From: an uncultured Leptolinea sp.
Lineage (GTDB): Bacteria > Chloroflexota > Anaerolineae > Anaerolineales > Anaerolineaceae
Direction of reading: 5' to 3'
Length of the DNA stretch: 64,000 nt
Assembly (NCBI GenBank): GCA_964476915.1
Contig: CAYZCO010000001.1
Span: forward strand, 4,253-68,252
Made by a program: the position numbers and the translations under genes. Shown here piece by piece: positions 19,624-36,547 of this stretch. Within the stretch, counting starts at the first letter, position 1. Each line of letters starts with the position of its first letter. The notes beneath the pieces were generated by a model that had not been told where the DNA came from, did no database searches, and saw only the letters and a list, made by a program, of their open reading frames with translations.

Positions 19624-19643
19624 ATGAATAAAGGATGTAGATA

Positions 19644-20489
19644 ATGATTGAGCTTACGAAGAATGTCTTGATTGAAACAGAATATCCAGGGGTCACATTG
19701 GCGGCGATCAATTGGGATCATGGGGTTGTCCTGATTGACGCGCCCATGCGGATGGAGGATATCCGCTTATGGCGGTCAGCTATTTTCAACCTGGGCGGGA
19801 GCATGGAACGGCTGCTGATCAACCTCGACCCGCATTACGACCGGACGATCGGTTCGCGGTCAATGGATTGCACCATTATTGGTCATGAGAAAATGGCCGG
19901 GGTATTCCGCAACCGCCCGATGACCTTCAAGTCCCAATCCACTGAAATTGGGGCAGTCGCGGAACAGCTGGATACGATTGGCAGCATCCGCTGGGCACCG
20001 CCAGATATCACATTTACCAGTGAAATGCACCTGCACGGCAATGACCAGGAAATTGTGCTCGAATCGCACCCGGGGAACGCTACTGGCAGCATCTGGGTCC
20101 GCCTTCCAGCAGAAAATGTTGTCTTTATCGGTGATGCGGTGGTTGTTAACCAGCCTCCTTTCCTGGCTTTTTCGCACATCCCCACCTGGGTGGAGACCCT
20201 GGAACAGCTGCTGATGCCCGAGTACCGCGAGTACGTGATCGTCAGCGGGCGGGGCGGGGTCATCCGGACTGACCAGGTAAAGAAGCAGATCGAATGGCTT
20301 TCCAGGGTAGAGCAAAAAATGAGTGACCTGGCCGGTGGGGAAGGCACTGCGGAGGATACTGAAAAGATGATCCCCCTGCTGCTGCGCGAGTATAACCAGA
20401 ATATTCCCGAACTTCCTATGTACAAGCGAAGGTTGAAATACGGCCTGGTCCAGTACTTCAACAAGAATTTTGCCCAGGTGAACGGTTAA
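19644..20489 (+). CDS. MBL-fold hydrolase-like protein with degenerate metal motif
   Basis: 281 aa. Layout of the metallo-beta-lactamase fold (HPGNATGS, FIGDAV) but LDPHYD replaces HxHxDH. Confidence 0.4.
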   Translation: MIELTKNVLIETEYPGVTLAAINWDHGVVLIDAPMRMEDIRLWRSAIFNLGGSMERLLINLDPHYDRTIGSRSMDCTIIGHEKMAGVFRNRPMTFKSQSTEIGAVAEQLDTIGSIRWAPPDITFTSEMHLHGNDQEIVLESHPGNATGSIWVRLPAENVVFIGDAVVVNQPPFLAFSHIPTWVETLEQLLMPEYREYVIVSGRGGVIRTDQVKKQIEWLSRVEQKMSDLAGGEGTAEDTEKMIPLLLREYNQNIPELPMYKRRLKYGLVQYFNKNFAQVNG

Positions 20490-20513
20490 GCAAGAAACCA
20501 GGTCAGGAAAATA

Positions 20514-21629: not shown

Positions 21630-22305
21630 AATATCCAGTGACCTTATAAGCCTGGCATCCCAAGTTTATACCCTTCTTCTTGCGCAATTTGGTTTGCCGG
21701 AATGGCGCGAACCCCTTCCAGCCCTGGATGAGCTGGTCTCAACCATCCTTTCACAAAACACCAATGACCGCAACCGGGATGTGGCGTTCAACCGCCTGCG
21801 CAGCGCACTGCCAGCCTGGGAAGCAGTGCGTGATGCACCGCTGGAGCAGGTAATTGACGCCATCCGCCCGGCAGGCCTGGCCAACCAGAAAGGCGCCCGC
21901 ATCCAGCAGGTGCTGCGCCAGATCAGCGAGGAGCGAGGCAGCCTGGACCTGGATTTCTTACGGAAGATGTCCACTGAAGATGCGCATGCCTGGTTGATGA
22001 AATTTAAAGGGGTTGGGCCCAAAACAGCTGCCATTGTGCTGCAATTCTCACTGGGTAAACCTGCCTTTCCTGTAGATACCCATATTTACCGGGTTTCCGG
22101 CAGGATCGGCTTGCGTCCGGAGAAAATGACTGTCGAGGAGGCGCATCCACACCTGGCCGGTTTGTTTCTGCCTGAGCAGTACGGTCCTGCCCACCTGAAC
22201 CTGATCCGCCTGGGTAGGGAGATCTGCCATCCCGGAAAACCGGAATGCGTGCGATGCCCTCTCAATGCGATTTGCAGGTATTACCGGGAAAACAGCGGCC
22301 GGTAA
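21622..22305 (+). CDS. nth: Endonuclease III (HhH-GPD base-excision DNA glycosylase with [4Fe-4S] cluster)
   Basis: Start at MPKISS (internal to ORF 21547..22305). HhH-GPD motif (LMKFKGVGPKTAAIVL...VDTHIYRV); C-terminal CxxxxxxCxxCxxxxxC (CHPGKPECVRCPLNAIC). Confidence 0.82.
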   Translation: MPKISSDLISLASQVYTLLLAQFGLPEWREPLPALDELVSTILSQNTNDRNRDVAFNRLRSALPAWEAVRDAPLEQVIDAIRPAGLANQKGARIQQVLRQISEERGSLDLDFLRKMSTEDAHAWLMKFKGVGPKTAAIVLQFSLGKPAFPVDTHIYRVSGRIGLRPEKMTVEEAHPHLAGLFLPEQYGPAHLNLIRLGREICHPGKPECVRCPLNAICRYYRENSGR

Positions 22306-22380: not shown

Positions 22381-23589
22381 TTACAGTCCTGCTGCTTTGC
22401 GCAGGGTTTCTGCCTTATTGGTCCTCTCCCAGGTCAGGTCGAGGTCATCGCGGCCGAAATGGCCGTAGGCTGCCACCTTCTGGTAGATCGGGCGGCGCAG
22501 GTCCAGGTCGCGGATGATGGCACCGGGACGCAGGTCAAAGTGCTTAGTAACCAGGTCTGCGATGGCGTCATCTTCGATCTTGCCTGTGCCAAAGGTCTCA
22601 ACATTGACGCTCAAAGGACGGGCAACCCCGATGGCATACGAAACCTGGATTTCACAGCGGTCAGCCAGGCCGGCTGCAACCACATTCTTCGCCACCCAGC
22701 GGGCAGCATAGGCTGCTGAGCGGTCCACCTTGGTCGGGTCTTTGCCGCTGAAGGCGCCGCCGCCATGCCGGCCCATACCGCCGTAGGTATCCACGATGAT
22801 CTTGCGTCCGGTCAGGCCGGCATCGCCCATCGGGCCGCCAATCACAAACCGTCCGGTCGGGTTGACAAAGATCTTCATGTTTTCATCTACAAGGTCGGCA
22901 GGCAGGGTGGGCATGATCACGTTCTCGGTCAGCGCTTCTTCGATCTCATTATGGGAGACATCGGGATCGTGCTGAGTGCTGATCAGTACGGTATCAATAC
23001 GCACGGGTTTACCGTAATGGTATTCAACTGTGACCTGGGTCTTGCCGTCCGGGCGCAGCCAGGGCAGGGTGCCATTCTTGCGCACTTCGGTCAATTTGAG
23101 TGCCAGTTTATGCGCCATATAAATGGGCATGGGCATTAAGGCTGGGGTTTCATTACAGGCAAAACCGAACATCATACCCTGGTCGCCAGCGCCGATGGCT
23201 TCGATCTCGCTTTCGTCCATCTTGCCTTCTTTGGCTTCGAGGGCTTTATTCACGCCCATAGCAATGTCGCCGGACTGGCTGGCAATAGCGGACTGCACCG
23301 CGCAGGTCTCAGCGTCGAAACCCTTGCTGCTGCTGTCATAGCCGATTTCTCGTACAACCTTACGGACCAGGTCATCAAAGTTGACAAACGCCTTGGTGGT
23401 GATCTCCCCCATCACCATTACAAAGCCGGTTTTAGTTGCGGTCTCACAAGCGACGCGTGAATTCGGGTCGACCGCCAGGCAGGCATCCAGTACCGCGTCA
23501 CTGACCTGATCACAAAGTTTATCGGGGTGACCTTCTGTGACAGATTCTGAGGTGAAAAGGTACTTGGATGCTTTCATAAAAGTAGTTGT
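22381..23589 (-). CDS. metK: S-adenosylmethionine synthetase
   Basis: Start set at [25 protein letters not shown] (GGAGG RBS 7 nt upstream). The listed ORF extends to 23637 into the riboswitch terminator. Hallmark GHPDK motif plus [19 protein letters not shown]. Confidence 0.92.
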
Positions 23590-23604
23590 CATAAAGACCT
23601 CCAT

Positions 23605-23639
23605 CAAAAAGATTGCCCCATCTTTGAAGAGGGGCAATC
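23605..23639 (-). terminator. Intrinsic terminator forming the expression platform of the metK SAM riboswitch
   Basis: mRNA: GAUUGCCCC-UCUUCAAAGA-UGGGGCAAUC-UUUUUG, immediately upstream of the metK RBS. Its 5' arm follows the 3' half of aptamer helix P1. Confidence 0.8.
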
Positions 23640-23654: not shown

Positions 23655-23772
23655 CCCTCCTATCTTCCAGATCTTTTTCTGCCGGAATTGGCACCTTGAA
23701 CCAACTTCAGGTTGTATCAGGTTGCCGAGGTTTCAACGGGCCGGTCCCTCCACCTCTCTGGATAGAAGCGCC
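23655..23772 (-). promoter_or_regulatory. SAM-I (S-box) riboswitch aptamer in the metK leader
   Basis: Minus-strand RNA: CUUCUAUCCAGAGAGGUGGAGGGACCGGCCCGUUGAAACCUCGGCAACC...GGUGCCAAUUCCGGCAG...AGAUCUGGAAGAUAGGAG. This matches the conserved SAM-I core (AGAGAGGyGGAGGGAcnGGCCCgaUGAAaCC, GGCAACC, GGUGCcAAUUCCngCAG, closing P1 ...GAUAGGAG pairing with CUUCUAUC). Confidence 0.85.
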
Positions 23773-24093
23773 TTGGGGCGTGTGTATTGCGAGATAATAT
23801 CACAAACAAAAAAGGTTGTCAATCAGCAGAATCTGGATTATTTGGACAAGCATTCTAAACTTATTGCGGGAGAAGTGAAATACAATCTTGATCTTGGAAG
23901 GAAAAAATAGTGGCATCGATGATGCTCTGTATCTATCAGGAAAGTTGATATGAGTGTCAGAGTTTTATCAGCGATTATCCAACTTCCTGATTGAATTCTG
24001 ACCCTGCGTTTGATATAGTTACGGTCGAATTAGGCAGCACATGCAGCACGCCCTGTCTTTTTGCAGGCGGTCTTTGAAAGAAAGGAAACAAAC

Positions 24094-24455
24094 ATGACGG
24101 AAACGGTCCTGGTGGCATATGCCAACCGCTATGGTTCCACCCTCGAGGTAGCAGAGAAAGTCGGGGAGGTCCTACATGACAGCGGGCTGAAGGTTGAAGT
24201 GCGCCCGGCACGGAACGTGAGCTCGCTTGAGCCGTACCGGGCTGTGGTGCTGGGGGCTCCGGTCTTCATCGGTAGCCTGCAAAAGAATATCAAGCGCTTC
24301 CTTTCGAAGCACCAAAAACCCTGGAGGGCATGCCGGTTGCTTTCTTTGCGCTTGGATCCCTCGATGCAACGGCTGAGATGGCGGGGGCGGAGGCCGTGAT
24401 TTATTTACTCAATTATGCTTTTGCAGGTTTTGCAGTAGGAATCCTATCAAACTGA
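24094..24455 (+). pseudogene. Flavodoxin-like gene, frameshifted and 3'-truncated at the island junction
   Basis: Frame 1 (MTETVLVAYANRYGSTLEVAEKVGEVL...) is a good flavodoxin-like N-terminus but decays into Arg-rich junk after KHQK (24316-24399). The shifted frame from the A5 run at 24314-24318 reads KTLEGMPVAFFALGSLDATAEMAGAEAVIYLLNYAFAGFAVGILSN* (credible protein sequence). Its last ~20 codons lie in AT-rich island DNA and the protein is about 30-40 aa shorter than typical flavodoxin-like domains. Confidence 0.5.
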
Positions 24456-24460
24456 GAGTA

Positions 24461-24784
24461 TCAACTGTAATTTCTATTTCTAAACATAGGTTTATCAATT
24501 CCCCTTTTTAATGCAGCCTTTGCTTTTTTGGGTTCTCTAATTATCCAGTCCATAGTTAAAAGAGCTGCAATAGGATCCATACCGTACTCATCAATAAGCT
24601 GCTTTACATGAACATCTTCAAAAGTGATATCTGGTAACGCTGAAACTTCTAAGAAACGAAAAAAAGCATCTTGAATTTCATGTTTTGCACAATGGATTTT
24701 ATCAGCAATAAGCTTGGCATCTTCCCTAGAATATTGGAATTTAGTTGCAAGAACTGTGATTATTTCTTCATTTTCCATTATCAA
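24461..24784 (-). CDS. Hypothetical 107-aa protein, last gene of the island, translationally coupled (ATGA overlap) to the HExxH protein gene
   Basis: MIMENEEIITVLATKFQYSREDAKLIADKIHCAKHEIQDAFFRFLEVSALPDITFEDVHVKQLIDEYGMD... Helical, no recognisable motif. 4-nt start/stop overlap with the upstream gene. Confidence 0.4.
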   Translation of the reverse strand: MIMENEEIITVLATKFQYSREDAKLIADKIHCAKHEIQDAFFRFLEVSALPDITFEDVHVKQLIDEYGMDPIAALLTMDWIIREPKKAKAALKRGIDKPMFRNRNYS

Positions 24785-25371
24785 TTCTCCATGTCCCCGT
24801 ACAATCCAATTTGGATTGCATTCGCATAAGACCAGGCATCAGCTTCTACTGGTTGATTCAAATACATCTCTAAACCGTAAGTTTCTGCATTCTTGTAGTC
24901 TTGCATGTTATCTTTCCATTCCTGGACGATATTTTGGTCAGAAATTATCTCTGGACGCTCAATTGCATAATCTTGATATGCGTGTCGCCCCTCATGGACA
25001 ATAGTATCTACGTTCTCCATTACCGTTTGATCTCCCATGAGGTGATCGTAGTTAACTCGGATAGATTGTCCATTCCATCCGCCAAACACATTATCTTCCA
25101 TTGAGACAGCTTCAACGGGAACCGAAGGTCTACCTTGAATACTTGCCATATTATCTTCCACGTTTTGCAAAGCAGCTAGTCGTTCATTTGCATCCTGAAT
25201 AGTCTCCCAATGTTCCGGTTGAATTTCACTTATTTGTCGCAACGAATCTACTCCATCAGCAATCTGACCCCTAGTCTCTAAGGAATAGCTATCTGTTAGA
25301 TCAGTCATTTGCGGAATATCCGATGGAGTCTCTAAGTTTTCATTTGTGTCTAATGATGTGTTTGAGTCCAT
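24781..25371 (-). CDS. HExxH zincin-like putative metallopeptidase (196 aa)
   Basis: IVHEGRHAYQDY contains HExxH followed by xxQ; a downstream ...LEMYLNQPVEADAWSY could supply a third ligand (Glu). Acidic N-terminal half. Family assignment uncertain (minimal zincin / DUF4157-like). Confidence 0.45.
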   Translation of the reverse strand: MDSNTSLDTNENLETPSDIPQMTDLTDSYSLETRGQIADGVDSLRQISEIQPEHWETIQDANERLAALQNVEDNMASIQGRPSVPVEAVSMEDNVFGGWNGQSIRVNYDHLMGDQTVMENVDTIVHEGRHAYQDYAIERPEIISDQNIVQEWKDNMQDYKNAETYGLEMYLNQPVEADAWSYANAIQIGLYGDMEN

Positions 25372-25384
25372 GTTGGTTGATCAA

Positions 25385-25855
25385 TCAGCCTAATATTTCA
25401 GGATTTGAATTTTCTTCCGTTTCATTTTCGAGGTTATTATAAATTATCCGTTCTGGCGATTCGGGACCTGCTTCAACCAAAACTGCATTACCAAGTTCAG
25501 TTGTGGCATACCGTTCCGATTGTATTGGGGGGGGATTTGAAATAGTATCCGAATCAAGAGGTGATTGGATTAAAGTATCTGAAGGTTGATTTTGGGTAAT
25601 TGATTCTTCGGAATCTCTGGTTGGAGATCCTGGTGGAGGTTGTGTATCACTGCCTGTTTCGGTTGTAAGATTAGAATTCATTTCCATTTCTTCTATACGT
25701 GTGTTTAACCTACTTTCTTGAGCTGCCAATTCTTCGTCTGCACGTCTACCCGCTTCAATAATATCTGGAGATAAGAGGCTATTATCAATAGGTATTAGAC
25801 CTTCATCATTCAATTCACTTCTGTTGTCTACTGGATTGCTATCAATATCATCCAT
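25385..25855 (-). CDS. Acidic Ser/Thr/Pro/Glu/Asp-rich intrinsically disordered protein (156 aa); start abuts the ATPase stop
   Basis: MDDIDSNPVDNRSELNDEGLIPIDN...TGSDTQPPPGSPTRDSEESITQNQPSD... has no hydrophobic core. ATG at 25855 lies adjacent to the stop of the ATPase gene. Confidence 0.4.
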   Translation of the reverse strand: MDDIDSNPVDNRSELNDEGLIPIDNSLLSPDIIEAGRRADEELAAQESRLNTRIEEMEMNSNLTTETGSDTQPPPGSPTRDSEESITQNQPSDTLIQSPLDSDTISNPPPIQSERYATTELGNAVLVEAGPESPERIIYNNLENETEENSNPEILG

Positions 25856-28834
25856 TTATTCCTCCAAAAGTTTGCTCTTGCCATACAGTTCCACAAGTTT
25901 TCGTGCTCGTGATTTTAAAGCATTGTCATTTGACTCTATTGCTAATATTTTATTCATTTCATGTGCAATAAAACAATAAGCCCAACCGATAACATTCTCT
26001 GATGATAATAATTCCTTGTACCTATTTTGAATTAATACTAATACTTCTTTTAAGTGAATTAAAGCGTCTTCTTGATCAACAGAGTTAATTGCTGCTGATA
26101 CTTTTTCGGAGCATTGTTTATAGAATAATGGTTTTTGGAGTATTTGATTGGTGACTGGAACTTTATATTCGCACACATTTCTAGCCTTACACTTACAATA
26201 AATGCACGTTTGCATAGGAGAATACAACGCCCATTTCTCAATCGTCTGATTTGTGTTTGAGGAATCTTTCTTTTGATCTCTATCAATAAAATGTGACCAG
26301 CCTTCTGGTTCAGTAATGTATAAATTAAATTTATGATTCTGCCTTGTCATAAAATGGTTAATTGATATATCATTGGTTACTTGTGCTTTTTTCCTGTCAA
26401 AGGAAGCTTGATCTCCAAATTCAGGAACCTTTAAATGAACGGGTTGTCCAAAAATACTCCTGACAATTGCGAAACCTGGTTTCAAAGTTCGAGCATACTC
26501 TTTTTGGGTCCTATTTAGGTTCGTTATGGTCGAAAATAATTCAAAGCTTGGTGCATCTTCTATCCAGTGCATGATTTTAATAAATGTATTTCCTATAGCA
26601 CCTTTTACTAATATTGTCGGAATCTGTTCGGCTATAACTATTCCTTCTCCATACGCACGTACTTCTGCAAGCATATTGCCGAAGTCCTCGCCGGAACTAT
26701 GCCGAGAATTTCCTTGCATATTGGAGTTTGCGGGGCTTTCTGACATCAAACGATGCGCTTCTTCTATAACTGTAATATGAGGGCTATCTAATGGTCTTGG
26801 ATTAATCTCAACAGTCTCGGTGAAGCAAACTAAAAGGAAACCCATAATTAAAGCGATATCATCTGTCGAACCAATTCTGCCCAATTCCATAATTGTTGGA
26901 TGATCGAGAATTTTTTCAAAAGGCATAGATTTCCGCACATTTACTGTGTACCCGACATTTTCCAAAAGATCTCCAATTCGGATTACTGAGGCTTGTTTTA
27001 CATTATCCCGAACTTCTCCACTATAGTTCAACCGATTAGTAATCTCTTGGATCGCTTCATAAAATTCCGACATTATTGGATAATGATGGGCGTCACTTCC
27101 TCTATCAACAGCAACATTCCACCCGGCATCTCGATAAACTTTTCGTAATGCTTCTCGATAGATCATTGGCAGCGGATCTTGTAAGGAAAAAGCAGATTCG
27201 AAAATTCGCATTAATCGCGAAATGTGGGTTTTTATCAAAATACCATCAGGGACAGCAAAAGGGTTGAACCTGAAAGGAGAAGTAGATTCATCGCCAACTG
27301 TATAGATTAAAAGGTCCTCTTCTAAATCAATAAATCCTTTTAACTCTCTGTAATCTGGTTTGTCAACAGGATATAAAACCATAAATGGGATTTTGTGTTT
27401 TAGCCATAATTGTGAAAGTAAATGTTTTATTGTTGTGCTCTTACCAGAACCAGTCGAACCCGCTATTAAAGCATGACGTGTCAAGTCGCGTACTGGTATT
27501 GTGAATTCCCCATTGGTGGAGCTTCCTCGATGAAAAATCTGGCCAAGACTTATTTTCTTTTCTTTTTGTGCTTCTTTCGATATGACTAATCCATCATTGA
27601 AATTCACTTTTGCTTGTTCGCGTAGCTCTAACTCATCAATTGGGGATATGAAAGGTTCGTTCTTTACCAGGATGCCAGGTAAATATCCAGATTCAGGTGG
27701 AATTGGTAATCTGAACGCCCCATATGCCTCTTGTGCAGTTGCTAAGTATCGCAACCGGATTAAGGGATCGGAGGCAATAGTAAAACCCCAAAAATCATGT
27801 TCAAGAAATCGTATGTTATTTAATTCTGTTCGTAATTGTTGGTCATCAGCTGGTTGAGCAGATACCCATGAGGTTGGGTATTTGTTGGCTGCATTACCCA
27901 TCATTTCAGAACCAAGCGCTTCTACCAAACCGCGTGGACAATCTAATTCACCAACTATATGGACACGTACCATCAGTAATTGTTCACGCTCCACCATTAA
28001 ATTGTCATAAACGAAAACTCCTACCTGTGATCGTTTTCTAATGTATTCTTCTGTAACATCTTCATCTTCTGATGCAGTCTTCTTAAATTGACCGATCATA
28101 AAGCTAACATTGTAGATTTCCTGGTCAAACATTTTGGTGGGTTTGAGACTGATATCAACGAAGCATTTTTGTGGTTGCGCAGATAACACTGCGAAAAATC
28201 GGCTCATCGGATTGGAGTTTTGACTTGGTACAAAAGGATGAGCAATATAATCACCTTTTCTTTCAACTCTAGCAGTTGGTGCAGAGCTTCGAATTGGCAT
28301 ATCTTCGTATTTACGAATTTCTAACACGCTCTCCTTTGATAAATTGTTAAATGGAATTGGCTCATAATATTGCCAGAATTCACGTTCTTGATTAACTGAT
28401 TCCAATGGATAGCCGAAAGGTTCTTCTGTGGGAAAAATGCCAGAAAATTTTTCCCACAGAACCTCTGCAAATTGCTGTGCACTAATTGCATTTTTTGAAA
28501 ATGATTTTCCAAAGAATATGATCTCAACTAAATTTGGTTGGCCAGCGATAGGGTTTGGAGTAGAAATGAACCTGAGAGAAAAAGTTGAATGGTTCTCCCG
28601 AATTCGGGCAAGGTCGTAAATAAACCTGAACTGGCGTTGTTGAATTATTGAAATTCGGTTATTGCCTGGTCTTGTCAAATCATCTGAAATCATTGAGGGT
28701 AAAAATGGTACCCGTGCTGCCCATATTGCATGAACTCCTTCTACTGAACGAAAAGAGAGTCCAATTTGGTTATCAAAACTGAAGGCTTGATTTATTGAAG
28801 TCTTTTCAGATACGTATATATAGGGATAACTCAT
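25856..28834 (-). CDS. HerA/FtsK-superfamily (DUF87/VirB4-like) P-loop ATPase with ~440-aa uncharacterised N-terminal region and C-terminal Cys-rich segment (992 aa)
   Basis: Walker A LIAGSTGSGKST. Walker B HITVIEEAHRLM (hhhhEEAH, the DEAH-like variant typical of HerA/VirB4/TraC-type ATPases). C-terminal CIYCKCKARNVCEYK Cys cluster. N-terminal 440 aa has no recognisable motif. Confidence 0.7.
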   Translation of the reverse strand: MSYPYIYVSEKTSINQAFSFDNQIGLSFRSVEGVHAIWAARVPFLPSMISDDLTRPGNNRISIIQQRQFRFIYDLARIRENHSTFSLRFISTPNPIAGQPNLVEIIFFGKSFSKNAISAQQFAEVLWEKFSGIFPTEEPFGYPLESVNQEREFWQYYEPIPFNNLSKESVLEIRKYEDMPIRSSAPTARVERKGDYIAHPFVPSQNSNPMSRFFAVLSAQPQKCFVDISLKPTKMFDQEIYNVSFMIGQFKKTASEDEDVTEEYIRKRSQVGVFVYDNLMVEREQLLMVRVHIVGELDCPRGLVEALGSEMMGNAANKYPTSWVSAQPADDQQLRTELNNIRFLEHDFWGFTIASDPLIRLRYLATAQEAYGAFRLPIPPESGYLPGILVKNEPFISPIDELELREQAKVNFNDGLVISKEAQKEKKISLGQIFHRGSSTNGEFTIPVRDLTRHALIAGSTGSGKSTTIKHLLSQLWLKHKIPFMVLYPVDKPDYRELKGFIDLEEDLLIYTVGDESTSPFRFNPFAVPDGILIKTHISRLMRIFESAFSLQDPLPMIYREALRKVYRDAGWNVAVDRGSDAHHYPIMSEFYEAIQEITNRLNYSGEVRDNVKQASVIRIGDLLENVGYTVNVRKSMPFEKILDHPTIMELGRIGSTDDIALIMGFLLVCFTETVEINPRPLDSPHITVIEEAHRLMSESPANSNMQGNSRHSSGEDFGNMLAEVRAYGEGIVIAEQIPTILVKGAIGNTFIKIMHWIEDAPSFELFSTITNLNRTQKEYARTLKPGFAIVRSIFGQPVHLKVPEFGDQASFDRKKAQVTNDISINHFMTRQNHKFNLYITEPEGWSHFIDRDQKKDSSNTNQTIEKWALYSPMQTCIYCKCKARNVCEYKVPVTNQILQKPLFYKQCSEKVSAAINSVDQEDALIHLKEVLVLIQNRYKELLSSENVIGWAYCFIAHEMNKILAIESNDNALKSRARKLVELYGKSKLLEE

Positions 28835-28915
28835 TATCTGGCCTTCCTGTGTTTAATAACCAGCAATCATACACGATTACTGAATGAATCAAAAAGTAGA
28901 AAGTCTATATAAATT

Positions 28916-29878
28916 TTAATCACCCCAGGGTTGATTATAATCATCTTGTATCATAGAACTCTCATCACCATATTTTACATTTTGAATTCTACTAATTTCT
29001 TCCTTGGTTGATGCAATTTGGGGGATTAATTGACCATTTATGTACTCACTTACTGACTTTTTCCGATTGGATATCACTTTTATACTAGATAGTAACGAAA
29101 AAACACCAATTAATATAATCAATACAATAAAGAATGCAGCCCAGCTTTCAGTGGAAAAACCAACAATAGCTGATAACATTAAAGCCCCTATTCTAAACAA
29201 ACCACCTATGCAACTTGATCCAGCGGTTTTGTTTAATTCAGGGTGGGCACGAATAATGCTTGTGTAATCCGTTTGACCATCTTGAAGTTCTGTTTGCAAG
29301 GCCAGGAGTCTTTTTTGTTGATCAGTTAATAGTTCACTTTGAAGTTTCTTGAAATTATCTTCTTTATTTACGCCACAATTTGAGCAGAACTTGTTTGAAA
29401 ATTCGACAAGAGAATTACAATTAGGGCATTTGACCCCAATTCTTTTCCCGCATTTAGCGCAGAATTGTGTGCCAGTTGGATTTGCTTTCTTGCACTTTGG
29501 GTCCGTACAGATCCAGGCGTCCGTTCTTTCAACCTCTTTTTGTTCGGAAGCAGGAAAATGAATGTTACTAGGTCGGGGCGGTGCCATTACTCTATTAACA
29601 GGATTTTGCGCAATGAGAACATCAGGATCTGCAAGACCAGCCATGGTGCCTTGAGCTTGAGCAAGAAATCTATCATACTCATTCCGTTTTTCCGAATTCA
29701 TCAACGTATTTCGGATCTCTTCAAGTTGGTTTAAAGCCTGGTTTGCCTGAGACACAATATTTACATCGTGATGTGTAACTAATGACCGCCATTTTGCGTA
29801 TTGATCGTCTAGTCTTTCTTCAATCTCAGCACTACTTGCATTTGAAGCTAATTTAAGTAATTCATAATAATTAATCAT
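28916..29878 (-). CDS. J-like domain protein (HHD variant of HPD) with zinc ribbons and C-terminal TM anchor (320 aa)
   Basis: N-terminus INYYELLKLASNASSAEIEERLDDQYAKWRSLVTHHD...SEKRNEYDRFL aligns with the DnaJ J-domain (YYEILGV..A...EI..AY..LA.K.HPD...AYEVL.D..KR..YD). Followed by CTDPKCK...CAKCGKR...CPNCNS...CSNCG zinc ribbons and a hydrophobic C-terminal segment (IGALMLSAIVGF...FFIVLIILIGVFSLLS). Confidence 0.55.
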   Translation of the reverse strand: MINYYELLKLASNASSAEIEERLDDQYAKWRSLVTHHDVNIVSQANQALNQLEEIRNTLMNSEKRNEYDRFLAQAQGTMAGLADPDVLIAQNPVNRVMAPPRPSNIHFPASEQKEVERTDAWICTDPKCKKANPTGTQFCAKCGKRIGVKCPNCNSLVEFSNKFCSNCGVNKEDNFKKLQSELLTDQQKRLLALQTELQDGQTDYTSIIRAHPELNKTAGSSCIGGLFRIGALMLSAIVGFSTESWAAFFIVLIILIGVFSLLSSIKVISNRKKSVSEYINGQLIPQIASTKEEISRIQNVKYGDESSMIQDDYNQPWGD

Positions 29879-29907
29879 TATTCTCCTCGGTTTAATACTG
29901 TTTTGGT

Positions 29908-30726
29908 CTATTCATCGTTCTCTGGATACCTGGCAAACCATTGATTCTTCACTTTCCTTGCTTCTAACGAGTTGTTTCGGTTTAATGCGTCTTCATGCCA
30001 TCGTTTATAAATGTCCTCCTGCAATGATCTTGCCTTCATAATGTTGGAGCAATTAACAATCACTTCATCTAACAGGTTTATAGATTTCTTCCATGCCGAA
30101 ATGTAAGCATACCTTTCTGCTAAAAGATAGTTTGCATCACATTTGATGTTCTTACACTCAACATTGTGTTGATCTAACGAAAGGCAAATACTTGATTGTT
30201 CAAGTGCAATATCAAGTTGGTCATGCTCAAAGGCATCCTTAGCGTAAAGTATGCTCAATTTTAAGTTTACAGGATTCAAGGTATTCTTATTTACCATAAA
30301 ACGTTTGGCCATTTTTAAATTGCTTTTTGCGCAGGCATAATCACCAGATTGGATGCAATTCTGCGCTACGTGCAATGATTCAACACCTTTTGTTTGCATT
30401 TTCCTTATAAAAACACCAATGATCACTATTCCAATGATTAAAATTATGCCAATAATTATGCTTATAATGATTGTTTGGCGTAATCTTAAAATAAACCAAG
30501 GTTTATCTTCAAGTTTCGGGAACGTTGCTGTGTTATCAGTCAAATTTTCTTGAAAAGCGATAAAATCATCTCTTAGTTTTTCTTTTGTTTCGTTCAGAAA
30601 TTCATCGCTTTTTTTGTAAGCGCGCATGTTTATTCCACATCCAGAGCAGATTTCTATGCCGATTGAATTGAAAAATCCACAACTTGGACAACAAATATGC
30701 AGAGGAGATGGATTATTTACCTTCAT
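29908..30726 (-). CDS. Zinc-ribbon / single-pass membrane / Cys-containing helical-repeat (TPR-like) protein (272 aa)
   Basis: N-terminal CPSCG...CSGCG zinc ribbon; TM helix IIISIIIGIILIIGIVIIGVF; C-terminal helical domain with several Cys. Its start overlaps the stop of the upstream gene at 30726. Confidence 0.45.
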   Translation of the reverse strand: MKVNNPSPLHICCPSCGFFNSIGIEICSGCGINMRAYKKSDEFLNETKEKLRDDFIAFQENLTDNTATFPKLEDKPWFILRLRQTIIISIIIGIILIIGIVIIGVFIRKMQTKGVESLHVAQNCIQSGDYACAKSNLKMAKRFMVNKNTLNPVNLKLSILYAKDAFEHDQLDIALEQSSICLSLDQHNVECKNIKCDANYLLAERYAYISAWKKSINLLDEVIVNCSNIMKARSLQEDIYKRWHEDALNRNNSLEARKVKNQWFARYPENDE

Positions 30727-31382
30727 TACACTTGTGTGAGTTTATTGAATATTATGTATGCTGTTATTAAAAAAATGAAAATCAGCAAAATTACTACAGC
30801 CCACAACAATAACCCTCTTACAATAAATCTTTGATTTGCTGTTTCTACAATTTTTGCATTGCGTTGAATCTCGTCCCTTTCGAGATCCGTACGTTGTTCA
30901 GCTGCTATGGCAGTTATGTATCGATTATTGTCAAACTCACTAATTATCGTTTTACATCTTTCACATACCCTGGTATTCAAGTTAATTATGTGGCCACATG
31001 AAGGACAAGATCGAGATGTTTGTTTACCACAATGTTCACATACGAGTGCTTCAATTAGCTTTAAATTCCCGCAATTTGGGCATTGCGATAAAAGAGGTTC
31101 ACCTTGAATATCTTGATTCCATATCGCATCTCTATGTGAAATCATACTGTGTTTGAACTGTTTTTCAGCTACAAGCAGATCTTTGTTATTGGTCCGACTT
31201 TTGATGATATCTAATAAAAATCTAAACGCTTCCTCTAGCCTTTCTCCTTCAGCATGGGCATCTTTAGAAAAATCGTTATGAAGGATAAGCTCGGTTCTTT
31301 TGTTGTTAAATTGTTCAGCAAGAGAACTTTCGGAATAATTTCCTACAATACCAAGGATTTGTTTTGCTGAAACCTCGTCCAT
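30726..31382 (-). CDS. Second J-like domain protein (HND variant) with double zinc ribbon and C-terminal TM anchor (218 aa)
   Basis: AKQILGIVGNYSESSLAEQFNNKRTELILHNDFSKDAHAEGERLEEAFRFLLD resembles a J-domain (weaker than the 320-aa paralog). CPNCG...CEHCG...CPSCG...CERC zinc ribbons. C-terminal TM (LLLWAVVILLIFIFLITAYIIF). Confidence 0.45.
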   Translation of the reverse strand: MDEVSAKQILGIVGNYSESSLAEQFNNKRTELILHNDFSKDAHAEGERLEEAFRFLLDIIKSRTNNKDLLVAEKQFKHSMISHRDAIWNQDIQGEPLLSQCPNCGNLKLIEALVCEHCGKQTSRSCPSCGHIINLNTRVCERCKTIISEFDNNRYITAIAAEQRTDLERDEIQRNAKIVETANQRFIVRGLLLWAVVILLIFIFLITAYIIFNKLTQV

Positions 31383-31387
31383 AGTAA

Positions 31388-32614
31388 TTACCCGACACTT
31401 GCGATTACTTCTCTTACAACCTCAAATAAATATTGTTTACGCCATCCTCTTACATTTGAAGATTCAAATGGCGTATCTTCACCGTCGACCTCAACTGCAT
31501 ATCTTGGTGGGGTATCGGGGAAGTTTGGACCACAACTAAAAACACACATTATTGTTCCCCCAGAATTTTTTGGCATATCAACTCGAATTATATATGACCC
31601 ATTAAAAAGGCCATTTGCATCCGTGCCTGATTTCACTTCCACGTGTGCGCCAGGCAGGGTTTTTAATAGATTAATTTCTTCATTCATCCTTGTTTGGGTA
31701 TTTTGCCCCGGGTTATCTTGCGTTGAGAGGTTAGTGCTATTTTGAAAGCCATATGTGCTATCAAGTCTTGCTTGCTGAGTTGATGGATTATTACTACCCG
31801 CTAAAAGATTATTAAACAACTGCGAAGGGCTTGCAGTACCATTGGAAGATGGTTGTACTAAGAAGCCGCCGGCAGGATCCATATAGCCTTTATCTATCAG
31901 GTCGCGAATAATTTTGATTCGCTCATCTGGTGATGCTTGCATTAACATTGTCCTAATATCCATTTGCGAATTCTGCAATATTGCACTATCTAGCTGCCAA
32001 TTGCGAAATGTTTGAAATTCATCCATGGATTGTTGACTTAATGCATCTTCACCTGAGTCGAGTGCTTTCAAATTTGTAATTATTACATTTAATACTTCTA
32101 TCCCGATTGTTTTCTGTAATTGCATCCCCTTTAATCCCTGAAGAACTCTTGCAGCGAATTCTTCTCTTCTTAGGTTTACTTCATCATAAGTAGCCACGCT
32201 TACAATGGGATTAATAACCATATTGACTCGATCAAATAACGCGTGTAAGGGTTGATCAATTTCTAAAGCAACCATTCGTGCATCTCGAACTTTGTATTCA
32301 ACAACTAGATCAAGATCCAATTGAACAGGAACGGGAAACTTTATTTGATATTTTCTACTGGTTGTGATTGTTAATTGTTTTACGCGCATGTCAACAACGA
32401 CCGCACGTATGTTCCGAAACATTTTATACCTGTAAAGGTAATAGAATCCTGGAGCTAAGGTTTCTTTGTAAACCCCGCCCTCCGTTATTACTGCACAGAA
32501 TCCTTCTTTCACCTCATATTTTCCGCTAAGCAGGGGTAGTGGTATCCCCTGATCCAGTAATTGTTCTGGTCTTACAAGATCCAAATCATTTATAGAATAT
32601 CGATTATCCGTCAT
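31388..32614 (-). CDS. SPFH/band-7 (stomatin/HflK-like) domain protein with Ser/Thr/Asn/Gln-rich linker and unknown C-terminal domain (408 aa)
   Basis: EGFCAVITEGGVYKETLAPGFYYLYRYKMFRNIRAVVVDMRVKQL...LDLVVEYKVRDARMVA...IEVLNVIITNLKALD follows the SPFH core pattern (G.V...G.Y..T..PG..h.P.h..V..V..R.Q........T.D...V.V...V.YRV.D). No N-terminal TM helix. Confidence 0.5.
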   Translation of the reverse strand: MTDNRYSINDLDLVRPEQLLDQGIPLPLLSGKYEVKEGFCAVITEGGVYKETLAPGFYYLYRYKMFRNIRAVVVDMRVKQLTITTSRKYQIKFPVPVQLDLDLVVEYKVRDARMVALEIDQPLHALFDRVNMVINPIVSVATYDEVNLRREEFAARVLQGLKGMQLQKTIGIEVLNVIITNLKALDSGEDALSQQSMDEFQTFRNWQLDSAILQNSQMDIRTMLMQASPDERIKIIRDLIDKGYMDPAGGFLVQPSSNGTASPSQLFNNLLAGSNNPSTQQARLDSTYGFQNSTNLSTQDNPGQNTQTRMNEEINLLKTLPGAHVEVKSGTDANGLFNGSYIIRVDMPKNSGGTIMCVFSCGPNFPDTPPRYAVEVDGEDTPFESSNVRGWRKQYLFEVVREVIASVG

Positions 32615-32823
32615 GATTGTGATAACCTCTCATAAAAATGTATACACTTCAATAAACCCAACCTTGTGTAACCTTGATTGGGCTCTCTTTGAGGACCAAT
32701 GGTTGTGTAGATATTTGTAAGAATATTGTTTTTGAATTCATAGGAAGCGAAATTTTATTAGAAATAGCTTGGTAAAAGTATATATTACTTTTACTATTTG
32801 TGTTAAATGATCCCAATCTTCCG

Positions 32824-34374
32824 TTATTCGATTATTTGGGTTTGCATCCAGAGCTTCTTTGCAGATACTTGGTTGTCTGATTGCCCAATTGCATAATCCA
32901 CTTTCGTTTGGGTCTCTATACCGGTTTCGATATCACGAGCGGAAATCTCTACAACTCCATTGTTGGTACAAGAAATAGTTACTCGTACTTTCTTTCCTGG
33001 AGGTCTGTTTGGAGGTAGTCCATTCAAGAAAAAATCACCAATTGGGTTGCATAAAGCTGGATTTTGAAATTCCCCTTGAAAAACAGTAATTTTTATCCCA
33101 GTTTGGCCGTGAATTTGTGTAACAAATTCTTTTGAAGTATCGAATGGAATTGGACTGTTCTTCTTAATGATAATAGAATTAATTTTTTGATCAGAACCAG
33201 GTACTGTCGCTTCAATTCCTATTGAGTGGCTAAGTACATCTGTGATTTGAAGAGATCCAATTTTATCTACAACCATTGGTTCTAAATTTTCATCTTTTAA
33301 CTTTGATAATTCTAAAGCTGAAACAATTGCAGCCCCAAGGCTAACAGCCTCATCGGGATTGATTGAAATGTCTGGTTCTTTCATAAAAATGTTTTGTACT
33401 GCCTGTCTAACAGCAGGAATTCTGGTTGATCCCCCAGTCAATAACACTCTATCTACTTCTTCCGCTTGGACTTTTGCTGATTTGAGAAGATTTCGAATAA
33501 GGGCTCCAGTTGTATCAAGCTTTGGCTTAATCGCTTCTTCAAATTGTTCTCTTGTTATTGAAACTTGACTCCTATGCCCTTTTGCCCTGACGAGGATCAT
33601 ACATTTATTCCGAACACTTAATTCTTTTTTTGCCTTTTCTGCGTCCATCCGCAATTGCTGATTCTCAGAGGCATCTTCACTTGGATCAAAACCGTGCTCT
33701 TGGATGAATGTATTAACACATAATCGAATAATCGCATCGTCAAAATCCTTACCGCCTAGTTGGTGATCTCCCTCAGAAGCTATTATCCGGATATCCTGAC
33801 CACTGTTTTCCACCCTCATTAAGGTAACATCAAATGTGCCACCACCCAAATCATAAACTAGCACTGATTCGTTGTTTAACTGTTTTTGTGCACCAAAAGC
33901 TATAGCAGCTGCTGTTGGCTCATTTATCAGTTTTAGGATCTTAAATCCGGCCATTTCACCTGCAAGGATAGTTGCTCGACGTCTAACATCATCAAAATAT
34001 GCAGGAACAGTTATCACTGCATACGGCAGGCTATAAGATAAAAGATCCTCGGCGTCCTTTTTCAGTTTCTTTAAAACAAAGGATGAGACATCTGGTGGTG
34101 TCAATCGTTTATCTTTATACTTATAATACCAATTCGGATTCCCCATTTCCCTTTTTGAAAAAAGGACAACTTTATCCGGGTTAGCAATTGCACTTTCTTT
34201 TGCTATTGTTCCGACCACAACAACATTTTCATCAAAGAAAATTGCAGATGGGGTTAGACGGTCTCCTTCAGCATTAGCAATTATTTCGGGTTCTCCATGA
34301 TCATTAATAATTGCTAGTGAAGAATATGTTGTTCCAAGATCTATTCCTGCAGCGCAGATTTTTTTTGTTGGCAT
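32824..34374 (-). CDS. Hsp70 family ATPase, short form (about 517 aa)
   Basis: Start set at MPTKKICAAGIDLGTTYS (the listed ORF begins 15 codons upstream at a TTG). Hsp70 signatures IDLGTTYS, DLGGGTFDV, LLTGGSTRIPAV. Substrate-binding beta domain present; the usual about-100-aa C-terminal lid extension of DnaK is absent. Confidence 0.8.
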   Translation of the reverse strand: MPTKKICAAGIDLGTTYSSLAIINDHGEPEIIANAEGDRLTPSAIFFDENVVVVGTIAKESAIANPDKVVLFSKREMGNPNWYYKYKDKRLTPPDVSSFVLKKLKKDAEDLLSYSLPYAVITVPAYFDDVRRRATILAGEMAGFKILKLINEPTAAAIAFGAQKQLNNESVLVYDLGGGTFDVTLMRVENSGQDIRIIASEGDHQLGGKDFDDAIIRLCVNTFIQEHGFDPSEDASENQQLRMDAEKAKKELSVRNKCMILVRAKGHRSQVSITREQFEEAIKPKLDTTGALIRNLLKSAKVQAEEVDRVLLTGGSTRIPAVRQAVQNIFMKEPDISINPDEAVSLGAAIVSALELSKLKDENLEPMVVDKIGSLQITDVLSHSIGIEATVPGSDQKINSIIIKKNSPIPFDTSKEFVTQIHGQTGIKITVFQGEFQNPALCNPIGDFFLNGLPPNRPPGKKVRVTISCTNNGVVEISARDIETGIETQTKVDYAIGQSDNQVSAKKLWMQTQIIE

Positions 34375-34536
34375 AGTGAAACCCTTATAATTTTTGCATA
34401 TAGAATTATTAAGAATCAACGATTTTCTGAGAAATTTATCTCATGAAGATGGTCCTTTTAACAATCACTTGTTCTTTTTGAATTAGAGTATTATCCCTAA
34501 AAAGAGATACTGGAAATACCATACCTTAAGTATGGG

Positions 34537-35964
34537 TCATTGTACCAAGTTAATCAATGGATCATCTTTGGGAATTTTTTCGAAGTAGGTCGTAAAATAC
34601 TCTTTTAACGGTTTCCATTCAGATGATGACAATAAAGTTTTCGCGTTGTGATTGGCATGCACAAGACCCGCAAAAACTAAAGCAGGAATCAAACCTTCCG
34701 TTAAAGCCATTGGAAATAATTCTTCCGTTAGGGGTGTGAAATGATTATATAGAATTGAAGCGGAAATTGCTTCTCTAATTATCTGATTCTTATGACGCAT
34801 TAGGTTACGCAAAAAGTTAAGGTACTGACTGTTGGCCAAATTGCTCTTCCCTCGAAGCAATGAATCCATCAGAAAAATTAGTGACAATTGGATATTGTTT
34901 GCGTCTGGATTTTTCGACATAAGCGAATCTAAGATTGCGTTTGTTTTGGGATGTACTGCCCCCATAAACAAATAACAACCTGATAAAAACACATCTACGG
35001 AATTTAGCTTTCGAGCATCATCTTTACTCCACATGTTGTCCAGTTTTCTAACCCCGTATGGACCACACAACTTAAGCACAGCGCCCAATCTATACATTTC
35101 TGTATGATAAGTTTGTAACAAATTAGTTGAATCCTCAATTACGTTATTTATTGAAACATATGGAGTAGTAATCAATCCAGTTAGAGAATTCTTTTTACTT
35201 TTATTTTGGTAATAATTAGTAAAACCTGCTATCCCTGCTGAAATAAGAGAAGAAGTGGTACTTTTTAAAGACTGCTTTTTGCCAAATAGCCTCTCTGAAA
35301 TGAGATTCCTGCCGGTTCCACTCGATTCGGATTCATCCGACTCAATATATTGAAAACTGCTTTGATTTATCAGGATTGAGATAATTTCGGGCAAATTTAT
35401 TTGTTCCAAGTTTTTAATTGCGAGAATATCGAAAGGAAATTGAATAAAATTAGCATATTCTGACAACCAGGGTAATTTTGCATTTGATCGAATCTTGCTT
35501 AACGCAATTAATGAATACTCCATATCTTGGAATATGTTATTGTCAACAATCAAGTGGACAACTTTTTCACCCCCAATATCTCCCAGAAGGGAATATAGAT
35601 CCCCTTTTTTCTCTTCCGGAAACATAAACTTGTCTTTCATCTTCCAGAGGCTATCAATAGCTTCGACTGGTTTCACCTCAAAAAGCATTTCTTTTGCTCT
35701 CTCATATGTCTCTCCATTTCCTTTTTCAAAATCATTCAATAAGTTTTGGAGTATATTCGGGGCCAGATATTTGTTCTTGGAGCTTGCATTTGAAGGCCTG
35801 AAGAAAGAATTTAATTCATAAAATAGAGGTGGAATTATCATATCTGAAGATGTTGACTGATTTGCAGATTGCGGCTCAAATTTAACTTTAGTACCGCATT
35901 TACCACAAAACTTTACAGCAGGATTGAGCGCATTTCCGCAATTGAGACATACGTAGTTCTCCAT
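34537..35964 (-). CDS. N-terminal zinc-ribbon protein with large helical domain of unknown function (475 aa); first gene of the island
   Basis: Start at MENYVCLNCGNALNPAVKFCGKCG (AGGAGG RBS 5 nt upstream; the listed ORF extends 10 codons further). CxxC...CxxC zinc ribbon, then helical body, Ser-rich linker around residues 220-260. Confidence 0.5.
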   Translation of the reverse strand: MENYVCLNCGNALNPAVKFCGKCGTKVKFEPQSANQSTSSDMIIPPLFYELNSFFRPSNASSKNKYLAPNILQNLLNDFEKGNGETYERAKEMLFEVKPVEAIDSLWKMKDKFMFPEEKKGDLYSLLGDIGGEKVVHLIVDNNIFQDMEYSLIALSKIRSNAKLPWLSEYANFIQFPFDILAIKNLEQINLPEIISILINQSSFQYIESDESESSGTGRNLISERLFGKKQSLKSTTSSLISAGIAGFTNYYQNKSKKNSLTGLITTPYVSINNVIEDSTNLLQTYHTEMYRLGAVLKLCGPYGVRKLDNMWSKDDARKLNSVDVFLSGCYLFMGAVHPKTNAILDSLMSKNPDANNIQLSLIFLMDSLLRGKSNLANSQYLNFLRNLMRHKNQIIREAISASILYNHFTPLTEELFPMALTEGLIPALVFAGLVHANHNAKTLLSSSEWKPLKEYFTTYFEKIPKDDPLINLVQ

Positions 35965-36226
35965 GATACCTCCTGTTTGGTTGTGAACTATCACTAAAGA
36001 TCTCTTTCAAAAAAATGTATTTACTTAAGAATTCATAAAATCGTTCTAAATAGGAAAATATTATCTAATAAATTTTAACCTAATTTATTCTTTAAGGAAA
36101 ATTAAAGTCCTGGCTCACGATTAAATAGATTATCCAACTTCGGAGTTTATAAGCGTGTCTTGCTAACTGCCCATTAAGAGACTATAATCAGCTTCTGCAG
36201 TAATTGGAAAGAAGGAAAGCAGTACT

Positions 36227-36547
36227 ATGCCAGTTTATACTTATCGGTGCGAGAACTGTGGAGTGCAGTTCGAAAAAACGCAGAAATTCAGCGACCAGCC
36301 CCTGACACGCTGCCCGGAATGCAACCACAAATCGTTACGCAAGGTCTACATGCCGGTAGGAATCGTATTTAAAGGCAAAGGGTTTTACGCAACCGACAAC
36401 CGGTCGCCATCCGGCCAAAAATGGTCGAGCAGCCATGAAGATAAAACTTCTGCGCATTCGACAGACACCCACACAGAAAAAGCTGCCGAAAGCGCTCCAA
36501 AACCGGAAAGCGCACCGGCAGCGCCAAAAAGTGATAAAGCCGACTGA
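36227..36547 (+). CDS. FmdB-family putative regulatory zinc-ribbon protein
   Basis: MPVYTYRCENCGVQFE...CPECNH: the canonical FmdB N-terminus, plus a low-complexity basic/acidic tail. GC content returns to backbone level here. Confidence 0.7.
   Translation: MPVYTYRCENCGVQFEKTQKFSDQPLTRCPECNHKSLRKVYMPVGIVFKGKGFYATDNRSPSGQKWSSSHEDKTSAHSTDTHTEKAAESAPKPESAPAAPKSDKAD

Follow-up and report, generated by a model that had tools for sequence, protein, structure and literature searches.

Hsp70 chaperones with a reduced lid and private J-proteins, such as HscC and the 'DnaK derivates' of multicellular bacteria, have functions that are still open (PMC8215388, PMC13580251). In Escherichia coli, HscC is a non-DnaK, reduced-lid Hsp70 encoded beside the membrane-anchored J-proteins DjlB and DjlC; it is sporadic, is thought to have been horizontally acquired and is presumed to act at the cytoplasmic membrane (PMC8215388). 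The predicted GAP1-N2 GTPase conflict systems of Kaur et al. (2020; PMC7159879) contain Hsp70, GrpE and DnaJ-fused proteins, and are enriched in filamentous or multicellular prokaryotes. In the Type III-A CoCoNuT (coiled-coil nuclease tandem) superoperons, which include Hsp70-like proteins, Bell et al. (2024; PMC11090510) described a cassette that codes for a small helical protein and for a VirB4-like ATPase to which an EccE3-like domain is fused, and suggested that it is a stand-alone defensive unit. Here, an 11.6-kb AT-rich island is described in a 64,000-nucleotide stretch of DNA (hereafter, the window) from an uncultured Leptolinea sp. (contig CAYZCO010000001.1), in which a dedicated Hsp70 and membrane-anchored J-proteins are encoded together with a VirB4-like ATPase. 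The nearest genomes and the names of the homologues place the window in the Anaerolineae, close to Leptolinea.

The island is a conserved, undescribed, operon-like module of ten genes that is horizontally mobile; its gene content, conservation and mobility come directly from the data. The gene set is not named as a system in PADLOC 2.0, Pfam, NCBIfam, PHROGs or the searched literature, in which no paper describing this gene combination was found. It occupies positions 24389-36015, with a mean GC content of 0.372 against 0.532 in the rest of the window; per 500 nt, GC is 0.33-0.41 throughout ~24500-36500 and 0.51-0.59 on either side. An initial annotation, made from the sequence alone, had proposed a sharply delimited island at 24400-36200, and this delimitation is borne out, the present borders having been set by blastn against a second copy in another genome. 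Ten minus-strand open reading frames, all co-oriented, fill the island, with spacings of 0-209 nt and two overlapping pairs. Each of the domain descriptors that had been listed for these genes was recovered by family scans, with the refinements given below. The genes, in order of transcription, and the two features at the island borders are as follows:

34537..35964, minus strand: G1, 475-aa protein with an N-terminal zinc ribbon (Pfam Zn_Ribbon_1, 5e-5) and a helical C-terminal region.
32824..34374, minus strand: G2, dedicated lidless Hsp70 of 516 aa, with nucleotide-binding domain and beta-basket (Pfam HSP70, 1e-125).
31388..32614, minus strand: G3, soluble 408-aa protein with an SPFH/Band-7 domain (Band_7, 8e-10), a low-complexity linker and a C-terminal RWD/UBC-like domain.
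30726..31382, minus strand: G4, 218-aa protein with a degenerate J-like N-domain, a double zinc ribbon (DZR, 1e-7) and a tail-anchoring transmembrane segment (TM) at residue 183.
29908..30726, minus strand: G5, 272-aa protein with an N-terminal zinc ribbon, one TM and a TPR-like C-domain of ~165 aa.
28916..29878, minus strand: G6, 320-aa protein with a J-domain (DnaJ, 6e-6), a double zinc ribbon (DZR, 1e-9), a coiled coil and a TM hairpin (two TM).
25856..28834, minus strand: G7, 992-aa VirB4-like ATPase (DUF87/FtsK P-loop).
25385..25855, minus strand: G8, 156-aa acidic protein (isoelectric point 4.05, 22% D+E), with no family match in Pfam or NCBIfam.
24781..25371, minus strand: G9, 196-aa zincin-like protein with HEGRH at residue 126 (family alignment).
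24461..24784, minus strand: G10, helical protein of ~105 aa with the conserved motif PIAALLTLDWLxREPExA (alignment).
24094..24389, plus strand: flavodoxin-like pseudogene, a left-border scar, frameshifted near codon 76 and cut at codon 99 exactly at the island start.
36016..36226, no strand: AT-rich non-coding stretch 5' of G1, presumed promoter region.

Homologous loci were fetched from other genomes or contigs (L-numbers; L007 is the contig of Leptolinea sp. UBA4782). Gene order is kept in at least 14 Anaerolineae genomes or contigs. Loci with this order include L001, L005, L007, L008, L010/L084, L011, L012, L013/L093, L017, L087 and L094, across which the ATPase is 53-91% identical. In the close-clade loci with enough flank, this order is Hsp70, (J-DZR-TM), SPFH, G4-type, G5-type, G6-type × n, ATPase, (acidic), G9 and G10, and an Hsp70 gene lies within 10 kb in about 12 of the 14 evaluable loci. 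Conserved co-occurrence of the Hsp70, J-proteins, SPFH protein, ATPase and HExxH protein, which had been set beforehand as a test of the initial proposal, is strong in other genomes. More than 100 full-length relatives of G7 were found at 40-91% identity, almost all of them in Anaerolineae metagenome-assembled genomes. ATPases 58-66% identical to G7 were also seen in L009, labelled Thermoclostridium sp., and in P0050, labelled Methanofastidiosa archaeon (a Firmicute and an archaeal metagenome-assembled genome, respectively), reflecting either binning contamination or inter-phylum transfer of the system.

In a sister clade (Oscillochloris trichoides DG6, Chloroploca, a cyanobacterial metagenome-assembled genome and other Anaerolineae; ATPase 41-46% identical), the Hsp70 and J-proteins are missing, and a ThiF-family E1 gene (5e-37) lies directly upstream of the SPFH-RWD gene, preceded by two to four genes for further proteins with RWD-like domains. 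Loci with the ThiF E1, SPFH-RWD and ATPase genes are L020 (7320-12811), L018, L021 and L022, and L040 is grouped with them. Since the E1/RWD-like genes stand where the close clade has Hsp70 and J-proteins, the same chassis carries either array, an apparent swap of an E1/E2-like module for the chaperone module. In L001, ThiF, Prok-RING, UQ_con-YukD, YukD and JAB genes come after the Hsp70-type system in the same orientation. Taking into account the E1 beside SPFH-RWD in the sister clade, this E1/E2/JAB cluster, which could pass for an unrelated neighbouring defence system, is not treated as clearly independent of the system.

The ATPase, G9 and G10 genes are also found as a trio without Hsp70 or SPFH, in L004, in L040 and in Bacteroidaceae beside Sel1-repeat proteins, and this trio is therefore the oldest conserved unit. 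Its presence in the Bacteroidaceae metagenome contig L096 indicates that it crosses phyla. In L096 (5275-9034), it consists of a DUF87 ATPase of 907 aa, a DUF3920/G9-like protein of 250 aa and a G10-like protein of 92 aa, and adjoins a gene for a large Sel1-repeat protein. The link between the ATPase family and Hsp70 also crosses phyla: operons of Binatia and Acidobacteriaceae combine genes for GrpE, a tandem pair of lidless Hsp70s and a J/TM protein with one for a related ATPase of 1007-1031 aa; a Chlorohelix locus has Hsp70, SPFH, ATPase and a 1002-aa polytopic J-protein; and L095 encodes GrpE, an Hsp70 with an inserted double zinc ribbon and a DA1-like peptidase. The Binatia and Acidobacteriaceae operons (L042, 1694-12028; L046, 1667-12031) carry in addition a 610-aa protein with three TM. 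In filamentous cyanobacteria (L054, L044 and L066), more distant relatives of the ATPase, 26-30% identical including the N-domain, belong to a conserved gene cluster whose other products are an FHA-TM protein, a TPR protein and a TM protein bearing a SecDF-P1-like domain; genes for a YhaV toxin and for TnpB are found within or next to the cluster of L054.

Mobility is seen in L007, where the whole island recurs at 87.8% nucleotide identity across 11.6 kb in unrelated surroundings; with this copy in a different genomic context, the island is horizontally mobile. The right-hand junction was found again in at least four independent metagenome assemblies, which excludes an assembly chimera. The GC content of the system differs by 0-7 points from that of its own flanks in most other genomes, so that the AT-richness in the window reflects recent transfer from a donor of low GC and does not characterise the system as such. 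Genes of mobile elements lie beside or within the system in L001, L004, L007, L084 and L087. In L007, the DNA on the G10 side of the island carries phage genes and has a GC content of 0.60-0.67, against 0.38 for the island; there, Phage_capsid_4 (2e-28) and lambda-type portal proteins (18705-22065) abut the island, as a probable prophage.

Besides the island, the only piece common to the window and L007 is the 5' part of the flavodoxin-like gene, whose remnant at the left border was identified by tblastn with the intact 171-aa orthologue of L007; the latter lies at 270-785, on the opposite side of the island and ~2 kb from that end. Island and flavodoxin remnant are bracketed by a 14-nt exact direct repeat, GATTATCCAACTTC (23973-23986 and 36128-36141), present twice in the 64-kb window against 0.01 copies expected. 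This repeat is absent from all the other fetched loci and is therefore treated only as a possible insertion scar, which may also be due to chance. A scan for att sites and terminal repeats found no terminal inverted repeats, GATTATCCAACTTC being the sole bracketing exact direct repeat.

It could be proposed that the island is decayed or dependent cargo of a larger element (a prophage, an integrative and conjugative element or a satellite), serving the transfer of that element or superinfection exclusion and not the host. The bracketing repeat, the VirB4-like ATPase, the phage capsid and portal genes 0.5-4 kb from the island in L007, and the integrase and transposases near its relatives in L004 would all fit such an origin. 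However, the difference in GC between the L007 phage genes and the island, together with the absence of the 14-mer from every other locus, argues against it, as does the content of the island itself, which has no integrase, transposase, replication or structural gene. Indeed, no match to integrase, recombinase, transposase, replication, relaxase, coupling-protein or phage structural families was obtained for the ten proteins in Pfam, NCBIfam and PHROGs, in agreement with the initial annotation. Nor were relatives found among IMG/VR viral contigs with two conserved peptide patterns; a phage collection gave two distant matches, limited to the ATPase domain, and the plasmid matches are likewise distant and limited to that domain. 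We consider cargo status very improbable, and the earlier view of the island as no obvious prophage or integrative and conjugative element holds, only L007 lying beside phage genes and the other loci differing. A phage origin was among the candidates rejected, PHROGs having given only generic Hsp70 and P-loop matches. A plasmid-borne conjugation gene was also discarded: 44 plasmids were found with distant relatives, limited to the ATPase domain, at 27-35% identity among the 15 matches listed, and most of these plasmids are non-mobilisable.

The ATPase G7 had been assigned to the HerA/FtsK superfamily. The superfamily P-loop stands, but HerA in the strict sense does not, taking into account that G7 is VirB4-like in both domains, with the two-domain VirB4 architecture plus an extra helical domain containing cysteines. 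Residues 1-400 form a VirB4-NTD/EccE-like domain, residues 420-800 the P-loop domain (Walker A GSTGSGKST, Walker B VIEEAH) and residues 800-992 the helical domain, of ~190 residues with conserved cysteines. Walker A (G459-K465) and Walker B (E691-E692) are invariant in the family. The N-domain is uncommon, with 156 clusters at E<=1e-3 in a set of 1.84 billion representatives, and occurs as a fusion to the ATPase, as a free-standing protein or as part of proteins of ~1450 aa. In structure, the ATPase core comes closest to DptH of the Dnd defence system; G7 also has a weak NCBIfam match to the DNA-translocating ATPase CedD, and weak TrwB and TraG P-loop matches fall on G7 itself.

Compared with VirB4/TrwK of type IV secretion systems, G7 shares the two-domain ATPase and differs in its extra C-domain of 190 aa with cysteines and in its partners, which are a chaperone, an SPFH protein and a zincin-like protein; no VirB3/B6/B8-type channel, VirD4 or relaxase was detected in the island (Pfam, NCBIfam and PHROGs). 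With type VII systems, only the EccE-like fold of the N-domain is in common, and EccC/EssC, WXG100 and EccB/D gave no family match in the island. The likeness to DndFGH/Dpt is restricted to the ATPase core, there being no matches in the island to DptF, DptG or the Dnd modification cluster. HerA proteins in the strict sense have a HAS-barrel where G7 has the VirB4/EccE-like N-domain, and their partners NurA, Sir2 and DUF4297, the last two known from the defence systems Sir2-HerA/Nezha and HerA-DUF4297, were not matched by any of the ten proteins (Pfam, NCBIfam and PADLOC). The EccE3-VirB4-like CoCoNuT cassette, compared by its published description only, is the closest published precedent, with an EccE-like/VirB4-like ATPase and a small helical protein. 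However, the island lacks McrB/McrC (CnuB/CnuC), VWA/TerY and HEPN genes, and its Hsp70 looks catalytically intact and has J-domain partners.

The resemblance of both G7 domains to VirB4 of type IV secretion, and of the N-domain to EccE of type VII, raises the question of whether the module could be a specialised translocation apparatus of a monoderm filamentous bacterium, for secretion or for the uptake of DNA or protein. The ATPase would then energise transport through a channel made of the TM proteins, Hsp70 and the J-proteins would unfold and deliver substrates, G8 and G9, with their acidic, disordered N-termini, would be cargo, and G10 would be a chaperone or immunity protein. Pairing an Hsp70 with a membrane-anchored J-protein is the design of the mitochondrial and endoplasmic reticulum import motors, which this module recalls, and a gene for a small helical partner following that of an enzyme is reminiscent of toxin/immunity or WXG-like pairs. 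The CedD match, the FHA-TM and SecDF-P1-like membrane proteins beside the cyanobacterial relatives, and the LysM and SH3_3 cell-wall-binding proteins carried by L095 are also consistent with transport. Nevertheless, neither VirB3/6/8, VirD4, relaxase, pilin, WXG100 or EccB/C/D nor any peptidoglycan hydrolase family was detected with Pfam and NCBIfam, no polytopic channel protein is conserved across loci, and no signal peptides are evident. Moreover, the catalytic domain of G9 is invariant and its N-terminus variable, the reverse of polymorphic toxins, and the tandem diversification of J-protein tails would be unusual for a secretion system. Such an apparatus seems, on the whole, unlikely.

Regarding the chaperones, the DnaK and HscA models of NCBIfam rank first for G2, which scores under both cut-offs (404 bits against 648 for DnaK) and covers positions 5-505 of the 625 of the DnaK model; since the match ends at position 505, the protein has no helical lid. 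The nucleotide-binding motifs DLGTT, DLGGGTFD and NEPTAAA are readable in the sequence, and G2 looks catalytically intact. It thus differs from canonical DnaK-DnaJ-GrpE machinery in the missing lid and in falling below the DnaK equivalog cut-off. Among its putative partners, G4 had been described as J-like: the J-like fold stands, while the H-x-D motif is lost, HND replacing HPD in the alignment; its orthologues in L087 and L094 match Pfam DnaJ. G5, whose position is kept in all full loci, has CxxC pairs at residues 13 and 27 and its TM at 77, and some of its orthologues give faint TPR matches.

The paralogues of G6 with J-domain, double zinc ribbon and TM number from one to nine per locus, with one in the window and eight or nine in L014, L015 and L094. 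Their J-domains conserve THHDP (H-H-D) in most of ~45 aligned paralogues, and a few have HPD. Within these arrays, the head with the J-domain and zinc ribbon is 50-100% identical, and the membrane-proximal/TM tail only 14-30%; in L001, three copies have identical first 120 residues. A constant head with a variable tail is the signature of a diversifying family of adaptors or receptors. Insertion sequence (IS) elements with rve-family transposases were seen inside the J-protein array of L001 (6024-7034) and of L087 (4746-6167).

The comparison with HscC/DjlB/DjlC made in the initial annotation fits, the model being a short-lid Hsp70 accompanied by J-proteins tail-anchored in the membrane (PMC8215388): here, G4 and G6, encoded beside the Hsp70, have membrane segments at their C-termini, a single TM and a TM hairpin, respectively. 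The likeness is one of architecture only, the lid being absent and not shortened; furthermore, the J-domains are HHD, fused to double zinc ribbons and found in diversifying arrays, and the island adds the SPFH-RWD protein, the VirB4-like ATPase and the zincin-like protein. An origin in E. coli, or a relationship to its hscC locus, was rejected when megablast with the island as query found no match in 5,426 E. coli genomes. The GAP1-N2 systems resemble the island in that an NTPase is coupled to an Hsp70 module of its own, which includes J-domain fusion proteins; they differ in having a GTPase and FNIII/TPR J-partners, and in lacking SPFH, VirB4-like ATPase and zincin-like proteins.

The annotation of G3 as an SPFH/band-7-like protein was correct and had missed its C-terminal domain. 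The family profile matches HflK (8e-7) and stomatins, the SPFH domain being related to HflK, stomatin and QmcA, and its last 90 residues match the ubiquitin-conjugating enzyme 3we5 at 5e-3. This C-domain has a conserved YPxxPP-type flap (FPDTPPRY in G3), and no conserved cysteine follows the flap in the family alignment, which leads to its assignment as RWD/UEV-like. No TM is predicted in G3. Compared with the Bil systems and with cyclic-oligonucleotide-based anti-phage signalling systems of Cap2 type, the window has only the RWD/UBC-like domain of G3, with no E1 and no conserved catalytic cysteine.

G9 has the invariant family signature HEGRHAxQ ... QPxExD, weakly matches the Pfam DUF6782 metallopeptidase family (6/11 members, 5e-5) and SprT-like proteins, and is related to DUF3920 proteins of Bacteroidaceae; its profile has no relative in the PDB. 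The acidic G8 is probably disordered; in L008 and L010, G9 orthologues of 483-547 aa begin with a long acidic extension equivalent to it. G10, which is translationally coupled to G9 by a 4-nt overlap, always follows G9, including in the Bacteroidaceae L096 (hidden Markov model, 3.5e-21), and has no Pfam or PDB relative by profile search. At the other end of the operon, G1 is fast-evolving and, beyond its zinc ribbon (CxxC at residues 6 and 20), matched no PDB or Pfam family by profile. Its homologues (24-28% identity) lie downstream of G10, not upstream of Hsp70, in L008, L009, L010 and L084. A word-indexed search with G1 returned only itself and one relative of 80%, and the protein is called identically, as 475 aa, in metagenomes.

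The pairing of a reduced-lid Hsp70 and tail-anchored J-proteins (PMC8215388), together with an SPFH scaffold akin to HflK, stomatin and QmcA and a zinc-protease-like protein, could also be taken for an accessory membrane-proteostasis or envelope-stress module, like HscC/DjlB/DjlC joined to an SPFH-protease microdomain (as in HflKC-FtsH), which would extract, refold or degrade damaged membrane proteins. GrpE in some relatives and the purely housekeeping neighbours at several loci point in the same direction. The parallel with HflK/C-FtsH and stomatin-NfeD consists of an SPFH domain and a protease-like gene in the same operon. However, G3 has no TM and carries the RWD/UBC-like domain, the protease candidate is a small soluble zincin-like protein, and no FtsH or NfeD gene is present in the island. 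The system also has a patchy distribution and moves horizontally, it carries IS insertions in places and its copy number varies; the tails of its paralogues are hypervariable; and its chaperone module seems exchangeable for an E1/RWD-like one. In addition, we know of no precedent for a VirB4-like ATPase in proteostasis. A role of this type is, in our opinion, quite unlikely.

Judged by its domain content, the island is thus not a HerA system, a type IV or type VII secretion system, a Dnd system, canonical DnaK-DnaJ-GrpE machinery, an SPFH-FtsH/NfeD pair or any PADLOC 2.0 system. The interpretation that we favour, with a probability of roughly 0.45, is that of a membrane-associated conflict system acting at the cell envelope against phages or other mobile genetic elements, the secretion and membrane-proteostasis readings being its serious rivals. 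It is preferred because of the mobility of the module, its diversifying arrays, the swapping of modules, its occasional residence in defence islands and the DptH-like core of its ATPase, and because of published predictions for related modules (PMC7159879, PMC11090510).

According to this proposal, the module would encode a machine assembled at the cytoplasmic side of the membrane. G4, G5 and G6 would be membrane-inserted, their J and zinc-ribbon heads facing the cytoplasm, and the SPFH-RWD protein would oligomerise there into a scaffold or platform. The variable tails of the J-proteins would form a diversified array of receptors or adaptors capturing targets, onto which the J-domains would load the dedicated lidless Hsp70. 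In type IV and type VII secretion systems, the VirB4-NTD/EccE-like fold makes contact with partners in the membrane, and through this domain the VirB4-like ATPase of the island, as a hexamer, would dock and then thread a polymer, either DNA or polypeptide. Finally, the zincin-like G9, held, guided or controlled by G10, would act as proteolytic effector or switch.

Several points weigh against this conflict system. A role in defence is something that we infer, and the membrane topology and all the protein contacts are deduced from hydropathy and domain precedent. Stimulation of the Hsp70 by J-domains with H-H-D and not HPD is assumed. No classical abortive-infection effector (nuclease, pore-forming toxin or NADase) is recognisable in the island. 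PADLOC-DB 2.0 assigned no system, with no system-specific model matching two or more components; its matches to G7 are generic and fall on the P-loop region (HerA, mad8, DndH at 1e-4, SspH), there is a weak match of PDC-M61B (7.8e-5) to the Hsp70, and seven proteins have none. The same search supports the initial view that the island corresponds to no described defence system, only generic P-loop matches having been obtained. Moreover, recognised or candidate defence genes lie beside the system in only 3 of ~13 neighbourhoods (L087, L017 and L001): L087 adjoins PglZ, BrxL, a PDDEXK protein and McrBC, L017 adjoins a BsobI endonuclease and a DUF927 protein, and L001 has the ubiquitin-like E1/E2/JAB cluster mentioned above. 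The remaining loci have ordinary neighbours, including the window, whose flanks are housekeeping (dnaE, metK, an FmdB-type zinc-ribbon gene and dnaA).

Other features of the window can be mentioned. An S-adenosylmethionine (SAM) riboswitch (Rfam RF00162, 86.6 bits; 23657-23768, minus strand) lies in the leader of metK (22381-23637) and accounts for a low-GC patch just outside the island; Rfam found no RNA within the island. Upstream of G1, a sigma-70-like match lies on the minus strand at 36210-36181, such matches not being above chance in the region, and promoter and terminator scans gave no excess over shuffled expectation. An open reading frame of 1074 aa (44651-47875, minus strand), unrelated to the island, has an N-terminal P-loop, TPR-like repeats and a C-terminal BTAD/SARP-like region, as read from its translation.

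The interest of the module lies in that one of the reduced-lid Hsp70s is held here in conserved gene order with a VirB4-like ATPase, an SPFH scaffold and a protease-like protein, in a clonable unit of 11.6 kb. A broader reading, possible if rather doubtful, is that the island represents an unrecognised class of envelope immune or translocation machine, with a chassis made of the SPFH-RWD protein, the VirB4-like ATPase, the zincin-like protein and its small partner, on which arrays of Hsp70/J or of E1/RWD would be interchangeable as ATP-driven adaptor modules. If this were true, the chaperone cycle would be a sensing or thresholding device of prokaryotic immunity, with the J-paralogues as its variable receptors. 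Since eukaryotic protein quality control and signalling later came to rely centrally on both Hsp70/J and E1/E2-like modules, their apparent exchange on a single chassis is of evolutionary interest. Should the module prove defensive, prokaryotic immunity would gain a principle of sensing based on chaperones, and VirB4-type motors would be linked to immunity beyond Dnd.

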